Part shown: positions 21,665 to 25,590 of the stretch, in pieces
Numbering within the stretch: position 1 is the stretch's first letter
Layout: every line of letters starts with the position of its first letter
Virus record (IMG/VR): IMGVR_UViG_2703718780_000026
Source: a virus
Taxonomy: Duplodnaviria; Heunggongvirae; Uroviricota; Caudoviricetes
Reading direction: 5' to 3' (one strand)
DNA: 33,331 nucleotides
The notes under the pieces: model-generated
Database searches by the model: none
What the model was told of the DNA's origin: nothing
Seen by the model: the letters and a program-made list of their open reading frames with translations, nothing else
Translations under genes and position numbers: made by a program

Positions 21665-23914
21665 ATGAGCACAAAATTCAGAACCGTTATCACCACTGCC
21701 GGTGCAGCAAAGCTGGCAGCGGCAACCGCACCGGGAGGGCGGAAGGTCAACATTACCACGATGGCCGTCGGGGATGGCGGTGGTAAATTGCCTGTCCCGG
21801 ATGCCGGACAGACCGGGCTTATCCACGAAGTCTGGCGACATGCGCTGAACAAAATCAGCCAGGACAAACGAAACAGTAATTATATTATCGCAGAGCTGGT
21901 TATTCCGCCGGAGGTGGGCGGTTTCTGGATGCGTGAACTTGGCCTGTACGATGATGCGGGAACGCTAATTGCCGTGGCGAACATGGCCGAAAGTTATAAG
22001 CCAGCCCTTGCCGAAGGCTCAGGGCGTTCGCAGACCTGCCGCATGGTCATCATCGTCAGCAGTGTGGCCTCAGTGGATCTGACCATTGACACCACAACGG
22101 TGATGGCGACGCAGGATTACGTTGATGACAAAATTGCAGAGCATGAACAGTCACGACGTCACCCGGACGCTTCTTTGACCGCAAAAGGTTTTACTCAGTT
22201 AAGCAGTGCGACCAACAGCACGTCTGAAACACTCGCCGCAACACCAAAAGCGGTAAAAGCAGCATATGACCTTGCTAACGGGAAATACACTGCACAGGAC
22301 GCCACCACAGCGCGAAAAGGCCTTGTCCAGCTCAGTAGTGCCACCAACAGCACGTCTGAAACGCTCGCCGCAACACCAAAAGCGGTAAAAGCAGCATATG
22401 ACCTTGCTAACGGGAAATACACTGCACAGGATGCCACCACCGCGCGAAAAGGCCTTGTCCAGCTCAGTAGCGCCACCAACAGCGATTCTGAAACGCTTGC
22501 GGCAACGCCAAAGGCGGTAAAGGCAGCGTATGACCTTGCTAACGGGAAATACACTGCACAGGATGCCACCACGGCGCGGAAAGGCCTTGTCCAGCTCAGT
22601 AGCGCCACCAACAGTGATTCTGAAACGCTGGCCGCAACACCAAAAGCGGTGAAGTCTGCCTATGACAATGCTGAAAAACGTCTTCAGAAAGATCAGAACG
22701 GTGCGGATATTCCTGATAAAGGACGCTTCCTGAGTAACATTAATGTTTACAGCAAAGGTGAAGTGGATAAGAAAAAGGGAATGCGAAAGTATTCGTTTGC
22801 AGCCCCTGCAAATGTCGTTGCCGGGAAGTGGTATCCCGTTATCTTTCGCCGTGCTGCCAGCCTTTCAGGAGAAATGGCATCCCGCGTCGTTATTTCCACT
22901 GGTTGTTATAACAGCGATTATGTAATGAATAACTGTGAGTTTAATGGCATGGTTATGCCCGGAGGCTGGACTGATCGTGGTTCTTATGCGGCAGGTTATT
23001 TCTGGACGTATCAGACTAATGAGCGTTCAATCCATTCCATTGTTACAAGCCTGAAAGATGATGATGTATGTAGTGTTTTTTATGTTGAAGCCAGAGCTTT
23101 TCCCGTACAAATTCTTGCAGAGGAAGGGCTAACGGTTATTGTTCCGACAGAGGATTATGTCGTCGGTCAAACGACATATAAGTGGGGGGCAACTAATCCC
23201 GCTACAGAAAGCACGAACGCACAGGCTATTCTGGATTTTAAAAATGGACGTGGTTATTACTGTTCACATCCATTTATTTCCAGCCTTTCAGGAAATGCTG
23301 CAACAGCAACGAAGTTAGCGAACGCAAGAAATATTAATGGTGTCAGATTTGATGGCTCTGCCGATATAAATATTAATACACTGGTATCCAGAAACCGTGT
23401 TACTGCATTAGGTGGGAGCGTAAAGGGGACACCAGGTATTCAGATGTATGAGGCATACAACAATGGCTACCCAACAGCCTATGGTAATGTGCTTCATCTC
23501 ACTGGTGTAACCGCAGTAGGAGAGGGTGAGTTACTTATTGGCTGGAGTGGAACCAGCGGTGCTCATGCTCCGGCATATATTCGCTCCCGACGAGATACCA
23601 CAGATGCTAACTGGTCTGGATGGGCGCAACTATATACAACTGCTCATAAACCCTCAGCGGGAGATGTTGGTGCATACACCAAAGCTGAGTCAGATTCACG
23701 TTATGTGAGAGACATGCGGCTGGGCGGTGCATCTACATATAAACCAGCAAATAATGGTACTACATGGACGCATCAGGCTCCGTCAGGTTGCGTATATACC
23801 GGCATTATTGTTCAGGATACCGGCTCAAACTCTGCCGATAACATTGGTGGCGTATATTACAGACCGGTGCAGAAATACATTAACGGGACATGGTATAACG
23901 TGGCGCAGGTATAA
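21665..23914 (+). CDS. H: Tail fibre protein H, with expanded internal repeats and a divergent C-terminal domain
   Basis: 749 aa (P2 H is 669 aa, from memory). N-terminal region is baseplate-proximal and conserved-looking; central 44-aa repeats; the distal part is AT-richer by eye. Confidence 0.85.
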   Translation: MSTKFRTVITTAGAAKLAAATAPGGRKVNITTMAVGDGGGKLPVPDAGQTGLIHEVWRHALNKISQDKRNSNYIIAELVIPPEVGGFWMRELGLYDDAGTLIAVANMAESYKPALAEGSGRSQTCRMVIIVSSVASVDLTIDTTTVMATQDYVDDKIAEHEQSRRHPDASLTAKGFTQLSSATNSTSETLAATPKAVKAAYDLANGKYTAQDATTARKGLVQLSSATNSTSETLAATPKAVKAAYDLANGKYTAQDATTARKGLVQLSSATNSDSETLAATPKAVKAAYDLANGKYTAQDATTARKGLVQLSSATNSDSETLAATPKAVKSAYDNAEKRLQKDQNGADIPDKGRFLSNINVYSKGEVDKKKGMRKYSFAAPANVVAGKWYPVIFRRAASLSGEMASRVVISTGCYNSDYVMNNCEFNGMVMPGGWTDRGSYAAGYFWTYQTNERSIHSIVTSLKDDDVCSVFYVEARAFPVQILAEEGLTVIVPTEDYVVGQTTYKWGATNPATESTNAQAILDFKNGRGYYCSHPFISSLSGNAATATKLANARNINGVRFDGSADININTLVSRNRVTALGGSVKGTPGIQMYEAYNNGYPTAYGNVLHLTGVTAVGEGELLIGWSGTSGAHAPAYIRSRRDTTDANWSGWAQLYTTAHKPSAGDVGAYTKAESDSRYVRDMRLGGASTYKPANNGTTWTHQAPSGCVYTGIIVQDTGSNSADNIGGVYYRPVQKYINGTWYNVAQV
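22196..22665 (+). repeat. In-frame 132-bp tandem repeat (about 3.5 copies) within H, encoding a 44-aa phage tail-fibre repeat
   Basis: ACCAACAG anchor recurs at 22211, 22343, 22475 and 22607 (period 132). Protein unit SSATNS(T/D)SETLAATPKAVKAAYDLANGKYTAQDATTARKGLVQL. Copies 1-2 carry ACGTCT and copies 3-4 GATTCT (an AABB pattern). Confidence 0.85.
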
Positions 23915-23917
23915 TTT

Positions 23918-24445
23918 ATGCAGCATTTGATAAATATAACGGCAGGTAATCCAAAAACGGTTGAACAATATCAATTGACAAAGGACTTTGATGTTGTCTG
24001 GTTTTTTTCAGAAGATGGTAAGAACTGGTACGAAGAACAAAAGTATTTTGCTGATGACACGATAAAAATAGCGTACGACAAAGATAATATTATCCGCTAT
24101 GTGGAAAAGGATGTGACAGCTATCAGACCAGATGGATTAAGTGTTGTTGAAGTGCCGGATATTACTGCTAATCGACGGGCGGACATTTCAGGGAACTGGA
24201 TGTTTAAGGATGGTACAGTGATTAAACGAATTTATACGGCAGAGGAATTGCAGCAGCAGGCAGAAAATCGGAAAGCCAGACTTCTTGCAGATGCTGAATC
24301 CGTGATTTTGCCGCTGGAGCGCGCGGTCAGACTGAACATGGCAACAGATGAGGAGCGTAGCCGACTGGAAGCATGGGAACGCTACAGCGTTCTGGTCAGT
24401 CGTGTGGATCCTGCAAATCCTGAATGGCCGGAAATGCCGCAATAA
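23918..24445 (+). CDS. G: Tail fibre assembly chaperone G
   Basis: 175 aa, the same as P2 G; immediately follows H. Confidence 0.8.
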
Positions 24446-24666
24446 GTTGTATGATCTCTGGAGTGAGCAAACGTATCTATGGCACAGAGTAAAGCCTAAT
24501 CTGACAGGCCGCTCTGTGTCTGGAGTAGATTTTAGTAAAGCATTATTTTATTAGTGCAAATTCTAATCAATACATTTTATGTATATGATATCCTGCAGAC
24601 TTTAATGACTTGGTTTAGGCTAACCAGATAACACTGAAGGAATATTTTTGATAATTAAGGTACGGT

Positions 24667-25260
24667 ATGTTTACTAAGCGACGATTAAAAAATATTAACT
24701 GGGAGGCAAGTTCAGTGATTCTTGCTATGGTTCTCTTTGTTGGAAATATATTTTATACAAATCATCGTGATGATATAAGCATGGAGGCTGAGAGGGACAG
24801 TATCAGAACAATGTTTGCATATGAAATCGCTAATAACCATCGCGCTCTCACTTTTCTTGATAAAACGAGACATATTGGCTTTGACGAAAATTCGGAGCAT
24901 TTTGTTGGCGAGCCTTTTGCCATTAATGTCAAATCATTAGGGGGGCCTCGCTTACAGATTGCATTAAACCAGACTGATAAAGTGTTTAAATCCTACTTCA
25001 GCGAATTAAGTAAGCTTGATAAAGAGGATGTTACTCTTCTTATGGACTATTACCATGAGCAAAGCATCCTGCTGGAGCGTGTAAAATCTACGTTACAGAA
25101 GATGAAAAGTGGTAATGATATTAAAGTTGATATTGATGGTTACTTATTAGAAGAACACTTCATGAATGAGCTTAATCTTTCTAATATTTTGCTTAAACGC
25201 TATAGCCATTTGTTGTCACAATACGCTAAAGAACATAAAACAAAAGATTTACATAATTGA
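24667..25260 (+). CDS. Hypothetical membrane-anchored protein (cargo at the Z/fun position)
   Basis: 197 aa; ATG with AAGG RBS; N-terminal hydrophobic helix SSVILAMVLFVGNIFY; strongly AT-rich codon usage unlike the flanking phage genes; sits alone between G and FI. Confidence 0.6.
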   Translation: MFTKRRLKNINWEASSVILAMVLFVGNIFYTNHRDDISMEAERDSIRTMFAYEIANNHRALTFLDKTRHIGFDENSEHFVGEPFAINVKSLGGPRLQIALNQTDKVFKSYFSELSKLDKEDVTLLMDYYHEQSILLERVKSTLQKMKSGNDIKVDIDGYLLEEHFMNELNLSNILLKRYSHLLSQYAKEHKTKDLHN

Positions 25261-25590
25261 TAATCTGCTAATGGTTATTCATGGGGTAACTATGTTTTAT
25301 ATGTAATCCAACTCAGATGAATTATTGATTCTGGATAATAACCGCAGAGCGGCATATACCCTGACAGGCAAATGTCCGCTTCTTGTTCAAAGCAGACTGT
25401 CAGATTTGATAACTTTTGGGCTATGTAAATTGTCAGTCGGAAAATGAGTGAGTTCAAATCAGGACTGGCGGGCGAATTGCCCGCATTTTCTTTATCTGTT
25501 GTTTCATCCACTGACCAGACAGGTCAAATAGCGTCTCATGCTCTGCACAACAGAAAATACCACTCACCCATTAACCACGGAGTTAGACGG

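Follow-up and report, generated by a model that had tools for sequence, protein, structure and literature searches.

The tandem repeat in the tail fibre gene of the window (by which we mean the whole 33,331-nt stretch of DNA that was analysed) is very probably an array of PF03406 units in the proximal part of gpH of a P2-like prophage, which would be old, would consist of four positional units and would undergo recombination only occasionally. With the same high confidence, and as part of this one explanation, we take the array to contain four PF03406 units, three of them full and one whose 3′ part has turned into a linker. The repeat family PF03406, gene H of P2 and the mosaic make-up of P2-like fibres are all already established, and the finding is an ordinary one.

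The array lies in frame within an open reading frame of 749 aa (21665..23914, + strand), the gene H homologue by Pfam, by PHROG and by identity to P2 H. Its N-terminal baseplate-attachment domain (PF12571; aa 1-151, 21665..22117, + strand) is matched over positions 1-150 of the 150 in the profile with an E of 2.9e-58, tail-fibre PHROG families match the 749-aa protein with an E of 1e-250, and RefSeq loci that are 99.4% identical carry the annotation 'tail fiber protein'. ORFs of 211, 115, 302, 176, 749 and 175 aa follow one another in V-W-J-I-H-G order, and all of them except H have the P2 lengths. The last one (175 aa, 23918..24445, + strand) is a gpG-like tail-fibre assembly chaperone, to judge by its match to phrog_136 (E 8e-80) and by its length and position, which equal those of P2 G. 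P2 gpH (AF063097, 669 aa) and Wphi gpH resemble the window in having the same V W J I H G operon, identical neighbour lengths and the same N-domain, and at the nucleotide level P2 H and the window's H are 95.8% identical over nt 1-719, the remainder being mosaic. Full coverage of the PF12571 profile, the place in the V-W-J-I-H-G order and nucleotide homology to P2 H are what assigns a protein to P2 gpH, and all three are found here. Given P2-type lengths and order of the neighbours and the 95.8% identity over 719 nt, homology indicates that the gene is the H of an E. coli prophage belonging to the P2-like group (Peduovirus). The neighbouring cargo ORF had no match in a PADLOC scan.

By far the strongest repeat that Tandem Repeats Finder returned for the window is that at 22211-22650, with a period of 132, 3.3 copies, 93% matches, a score of 740 and not a single indel. 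A first-pass annotation, made from the letters alone, had described a 44-aa unit repeated head to tail in gene H with anchors at 22211, 22343, 22475 and 22607. The 132-bp phasing of these anchors proved exact and goes far beyond what chance would give, and Tandem Repeats Finder, Pfam and the identity to P2 all bear out such a unit in a P2 gene H homologue. The Pfam family PF03406 ("Phage tail fibre repeat") matches the 749-aa protein in four stretches (E 1.3e-80), with a score of 265.1 bits where the cut-off is 22. This score above the gathering threshold, together with the exact tandem phasing of 44 aa (132 nt) in a tail fibre protein, places the array in the family.

In codon register and on the + strand, unit 1 covers 22193..22324 (aa 177-220), unit 2 covers 22325..22456 (aa 221-264) and unit 3 covers 22457..22588 (aa 265-308). 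Unit 4 would extend over 22589-22720, and is repeat-like over its first ~75 nt only; its conserved 5′ part (22589..22660, + strand, aa 309-332) is the fourth of the PF03406 stretches, and it is followed by the linker YDNAEKRLQKDQNGADIPDK (22661..22720, + strand). Units 1 and 2 are of the Thr type (ACG TCT, Thr-Ser) and units 3 and 4 of the Asp type (GAT TCT, Asp-Ser), just as had been read at first pass. A TPR_20 match in Pfam (20 bits, below the cut-off) and an antisense ORF at 22195-22611 were both put down as by-products of the repeat.

The Thr and Asp types had led the first-pass annotation to an AABB pattern of divergence, with the copies arising by successive duplications. Indeed, copies 1 and 2 are alike, with no more than 4 differences over nt 16-132, and copies 3 and 4 have the Asp codon GAT and one Ser codon (AGC) in common; P2 itself has just two units. 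These observations would be in keeping with a recent expansion, in which single units were duplicated one after the other (the A pair, then the B pair) and a shorter P2-type fibre was thereby lengthened. However, the second half of the pattern does not stand, since unit 4 is about as far from unit 3 as unit 3 is from unit 2. Over the common first 75 nt, units 1 and 2 differ at 8 sites, 2 and 3 at 10, 3 and 4 at 9, 2 and 4 at 11, 1 and 3 at 18 and 1 and 4 at 19.

The same units can be compared across phages, for which we used a set of 46 four-unit arrays from IMG/VR. Between phages, units that occupy the same position show 3.5-5.0 differences per 60 nt. The corresponding values between units within an array are 7.3 for units 1-2, 9.7 for 2-3 and 9.6 for 3-4, and they reach 12.2 for 1-3, 12.1 for 2-4 and 13.1 for 1-4, so that divergence is a gradient along the array and does not fall into two pairs. 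For 171 of the 184 units, all nearest relatives occupy that same position in the arrays of other phages. Because units are closer to their positional counterparts than to their neighbours in the array, the array is old, and its four units are positional orthologues that had formed before these phages diverged. Among the window's units dS ranges from 0.25 to 1.7 (0.25-0.73 for the full units, which have 10-21 differences per 132 nt and ~85-92% DNA identity), such that the first-pass view that the array does not stem from one recent slippage is upheld. At the same time dN/dS is 0.03-0.13, and the peptide is under strong purifying selection.

The likeness of units 1 and 2 in the window has a different background. 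The divergence between first and second units is typically 9-17 sites where the window has 4. Consensus units 1 and 2 are separated by 13 sites, at which the window's unit 1 is of the first type over nt 1-39 and of the second type over nt 42-99. Copies 1 and 2 of the window are hence alike because copy 1 is chimeric, its 3′ part being of the copy-2 type, and this chimera was produced by either gene conversion or unequal crossover. Arrays that classify as 2-2-3-4 make up 4 of the 46 from IMG/VR, and the window's array is among this minority.

In the light of these comparisons we consider a recent expansion highly improbable. The four unit types are positional orthologues in 46 other arrays and occur with at least two classes of distal module, dS between units is 0.25-1.7, and the 4 differences between units 1 and 2 reflect a tract of conversion bounded between nt 39 and nt 42. 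Furthermore, P2 ends its array with a truncated unit of the second type, so it looks like a derived junction rather than an ancestor, and the synonymous diversity argues against the other arrays descending recently from this prophage. The idea of two pairwise duplications is thus not borne out by the positional orthology of 171/184 units, the gradient of divergence and the chimeric unit 1. We therefore favour an old set of four distinct units over a recent expansion.

If the array is old, its size in relatives becomes of interest. Our IMG/VR sample consists of the best 80 of 422 relatives, all of which have an N-domain at least 98% identical to that of the window, and the H gene is complete in 73 of them; units were counted with a similarity-based walker. 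There are two units in 15 of these 73 genes, three in 2, four in 44 and five in 12, though protein matches were ranked by score and frequencies from a best 80 of 422 are not those of an unbiased census. Each of the best 120 protein homologues has between 3 and 6 units, always at a spacing of 44 aa, and the gpH of P2 and that of Wphi (669 aa) carry 2. Ten more 749-aa four-unit H genes were among the fetched loci, nine of them on IMG/VR contigs and one in E. coli EC-JS426. We conclude that four units are the modal and ancestral state, and with 44 of the 73 complete genes in that state, the first-pass notion that an expansion of the repeat is what makes this H long does not hold.

E. coli genomes with a match number 1,814, and the fibre type of the window is found in 54 complete genomes of this species, among which 52 alleles have the four-unit length and two have three units. 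In 41 of the 54 the 2250-nt H copy is colinear with that of the window at 97.2-99.4% identity, and 11 further alleles are of four-unit length and have a divergent segment elsewhere in the gene. This bears on the possibility that short reads had collapsed or expanded the 132-bp repeat during assembly, a suspicion that is nourished by the many database homologues that are 'partial' and end near the repeat, which implies that short-read assemblies often break there. With the colinear gene present in 41 complete assemblies of unrelated isolates, and on several IMG/VR contigs too, and with 10-21 differences per 132 nt that allow units to be placed unambiguously, such an artefact is very unlikely indeed, to the point of being negligible.

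E. coli PapRG-06-3 and SWHEFF_58 carry the two three-unit alleles, which both lack unit 2 and are shorter by exactly 132 nt. One of them has a unit 1 identical to that of the window, the other a hybrid unit 1 of the first and second type. An intact unit 1 in one allele and a hybrid in the other therefore point to two independent recombination events between copies 1 and 2. As for the order of units, it is 1-2-3-3-4 or 1-2-2-3-4 in five-unit arrays, 1-2-4 or (1/2)-3-4 in three-unit arrays, and 1-3-3-4 or 2-2-3-4 in a few of the four-unit arrays. The interior of the array gains, loses and converts units and its two ends stay in place, as one would expect if misaligned units recombine from time to time; for some of the events, the direction (gain or loss) was judged by what the majority of arrays shows rather than on a rooted phylogeny.

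The first-pass annotation had expected a site of recombination or length variation between lysogens, and in this it was right, considering the 2-6 units in homologues, the three-unit state of 2 of the 54 alleles and the junctions located at the array. The copy count among related H genes is variable, as opposed to the same four copies in all relatives, but it changes infrequently. It is this infrequency that speaks against a hypervariable locus of the contingency type, in which copy number would change at high frequency and each lysogen population would hedge its bets with a mixture of fibre lengths. The range of 2-6 units among relatives and at least two independent deletions within one fibre type would be compatible with such a locus. 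However, 52 of 54 alleles of the same type have the four-unit length despite a gene divergence of up to ~4%, one copy number dominates within each class of distal module, and units that are ~85-92% identical in DNA are a poor substrate for frequent slippage. Neither high-frequency copy change in close relatives nor units of near-identical DNA, the hallmarks of a hypervariable locus, were found, and we regard this scenario as very improbable.

At ~22650 the GC content steps down from ~0.55 to 0.44, and the linker YDNAEKRLQKDQNGADIPDK, which the phage Mu fibre protein S has in common with the window, is the usual mosaic junction before the distal module. This distal exchangeable part of the fibre (aa 353-749, 22721..23914, + strand) is presumed to be receptor-binding, and its tip (aa 638-748) resembles Mu S/S′ and a 'short tail fiber' chain. 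Homology between P2-type fibres and the window's H stops right after the AATPKAVK of a unit of the second type, and homology to three other distal classes (GRFLSNINVY..., DTFTKNIGACRAY... and RLFLRNIGATNS...) stops right after ...YDNAEKRLQKDQNGADIP(D/G)K, that is, after NGADIP(D/G)K. Against named phages, megablast alignments break at query nt 719, 858/870 and 1059, within the array or at its end. The array is a site of recombination with mosaic junctions inside or directly after it. Shared fibre motifs of this kind are said to have been described by Haggård-Ljungquist et al. in 1992, and reportedly also by Sandmeier in 1994.

The location of the junctions at the array end agrees with the published mosaic view of P2-like fibres. 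For GpH of L-413C, the account of Garcia et al. (2008) that is cited in PMC7460101 has only the N-terminal 207 aa and the C-terminal 137 aa in common with P2 H, and according to the same account the middle is a mosaic related to fibre proteins of other enterobacterial phages. P2 and Wphi gpH likewise start like the window, with unit 1 followed by the beginning of a unit of the second type, and unlike the window they have two units and continue after the AATPKAVK of unit 2 with a different shaft (TVMDETNKKAPLNSPALTG...) and distal region. A closer match is the 748-aa tail fibre of Peduovirus P2_2H4 (LR595869) and Escherichia phage 9W, which has the same four unit types and the same distal class and is 97.2% identical over nt 1-1643, whereas its C-terminal tip differs after nt 1643. 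The 'tail fiber protein' of prophages in E. coli EC-JS426, TK3889 and others has four units and the same distal class, and at 99.4% identity over the full length it shows point differences only.

Considering these junctions, one may ask whether the units serve recombination first and foremost, i.e., whether they have been selected mainly as homology for the exchange of distal modules between unrelated phages, with fibre length being incidental. That the fibre is joined to four distal classes within the array or immediately behind it would fit such a role, as would the step in GC content at the junction and the occurrence of the unit with its NGADIP linker in Mu S and in other proteins, unlike in the rest of their sequence, that make up 2421 representative clusters. 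We nonetheless think this unlikely: the amino acids are far more conserved than the DNA (dN/dS 0.03-0.13), which implies selection on the protein, and synonymous divergence erodes the very nucleotide homology that the exchange would require.

A further question is whether the number of units goes with the type of distal module. In the IMG/VR sample the two go together almost perfectly: fibres of the P2 type have 2 units, those of the GRFLSNINVY type (that of the window) and of the DTFTKNIGACRAY type have 4, and those of the RLFLRNIGATNS type have 5 in 11 of 12 cases; the 5′ units of the arrays are of sequence types that are common across distal classes. It is conceivable, if rather doubtful, that unit number is functionally matched to the distal module, with the length of the fibre tuned to the receptor or surface layer that is targeted. 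The pattern of copy number and class would follow just as well from physical linkage between the 3′ units and the distal module.

We prefer to see the array as an inherited part of the fibre that recombines now and then. In this scheme, it would join the conserved N-terminal domain that docks to the baseplate to an exchangeable distal receptor-binding module, the folding of which is presumably helped by the adjoining gpG chaperone. Each unit is most likely one structural module of the fibre shaft, as its position suggests, and more units would make for a longer fibre, a plausible effect that the first-pass annotation had proposed, the shaft being presumably trimeric. With its peptide under strong purifying selection, the array is passed on as a set of four units that are distinct by position, and homologous units that have paired out of register recombine by unequal crossover or gene conversion, leading to an occasional change in the number or identity of units. 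Such recombination generates alleles with 2-6 units as well as chimeric units like unit 1 of the window, and the conserved unit sequence probably doubles as homology for joining different distal modules. An AlphaFold2 prediction for aa 141-400 as a single-sequence monomer had a mean pLDDT of 42.8 and gave an all-helical output of low confidence that was judged unusable, a monomer being in any case no model of a trimeric fibre.

With respect to other proteins of the family, the window's units are no different in kind from PF03406 (Phage_fiber_2), the Pf2 of Ghosh et al. (2012; PMC3368898). The repeat region matches 2421 representative protein clusters at E <= 1e-3 with a spacing of 44 or 56 aa, and other proteins of the PF03406 type have 1-12 units, often with alternating forms of 44 and 56 aa. 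Pf2 repeats are on record in lambda Stf and in fibres of EHEC prophages (PMC3368898). Rotary-shadowing electron microscopy of an EHEC prophage fibre tentatively assigned the Pf2 region, with a 'presumably' of the authors' own, to an internal globular feature rather than to a stalk (PMC3368898). In 2021 PF03406 still figured on a list of repeat families that lack a known structure (PMC8078820), and our literature search found no structural or functional study of the PF03406 unit or of the repeats in P2 gpH. When the PDB was searched with the sequence of the repeat region, Mu gpS was the only match. In Mu S and S′ (PDB 5YVQ, 8JU3, 9KI1), one unit and its linker (KGLVQLTSATDSPSETLAATAKAVKIAMDNANARLAKDRNGADIPNK) align with unit 4 of the window and the linker that follows it, and the C-terminal tip of Mu S is related to that of the window fibre. 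Unlike the window's protein, Mu S has just one unit, its N-terminal anchor is of another kind, and the cryo-EM model of Mu covers only the N-terminus of the fibre (PMC11915804).

Dozens of E. coli genomes already contain an annotated, near-identical allele of this gene, and its value for discovery is accordingly small. What may be taken from the array is that it represents an old set of four distinct units, not a recent expansion, in which units are lost or gained at low frequency via recombination between neighbouring units. The tendency of short-read assemblies to break at the repeat is a known hazard for prophage typing. For the design of chimeric fibres of P2 or of tailocins, the junctions after AATPKAVK and after NGADIP(D/G)K would be sensible splice points.

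When the H genes of the IMG/VR loci (L001-L080, the best 80 of 422 relatives) are set against the array of the window (22193-22720), the number of PF03406 repeat units in the tail fibre protein matches the class of the exchangeable distal module almost perfectly: the P2-type distal class carries two units, two other classes carry four units each, and the RLFLRNIGATNS class carries five. Despite this class-specific unit number, the sequence types of the 5′ units are common to different distal classes. The match could reflect either linkage or a matching of lengths.

Longer arrays were found in the representative library, where the fibre protein P0121 (778 aa) harbors 10 PF03406 units and a second one, P0122 (846 aa), harbors 12. 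In both proteins, the 44-aa form of the unit alternates strictly with a 56-aa form, which is distinguished by an inserted ...AGKAPSSHTHPWNQITGVPTASLTAKG... segment. The stretch 5′ of unit 1 in the window (RRHPDASLTAKGF) resembles the end of this insert, and the array of P0122 is followed by P2-type shaft sequence. On the opposite strand of the array in the window lies an ORF of 138 aa (22195-22611, minus strand), which does not extend beyond the repeat and has a repetitive sequence of its own; it is a by-product of the periodicity and does not speak for a gene.

With respect to the distal module, the GC content falls from approximately 0.55 in the N-domain (PF12571) and the repeats to approximately 0.43-0.46 right past the array (22650-23400). 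This drop coincides with the mosaic junction at the NGADIPDK linker and points to acquisition of the distal fibre module from a source of lower GC content. The C-terminal tip of H (aa 638-748; 23576-23911, plus strand), which ends in the shared motif ...NGTWYNVA, is similar to the Mu S/S′ tips (8ju3, 5yvq) as well as to that of a chain labelled "short tail fiber" (9cuy, 9mjn). By analogy with Mu, it may be a chaperone-dependent receptor-binding tip.

The genes G (chaperone) and FI (sheath) are separated in the window by a cargo ORF of 197 aa (24667-25260, plus strand), which lies in a region of low GC content (0.32-0.38 over 24450-25440). A PADLOC scan of this ORF gave no match, and its sole match is phrog_3829, a family of unknown function. 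The contents of the slot differ among relatives: in P2 the same position is occupied by fun(Z), in Wphi by orf44, in E. coli EC-JS426 by a hypothetical protein together with a NERD-domain protein, and in further relatives by other hypotheticals. The G-FI interval probably serves as a variable slot for morons or defence genes.
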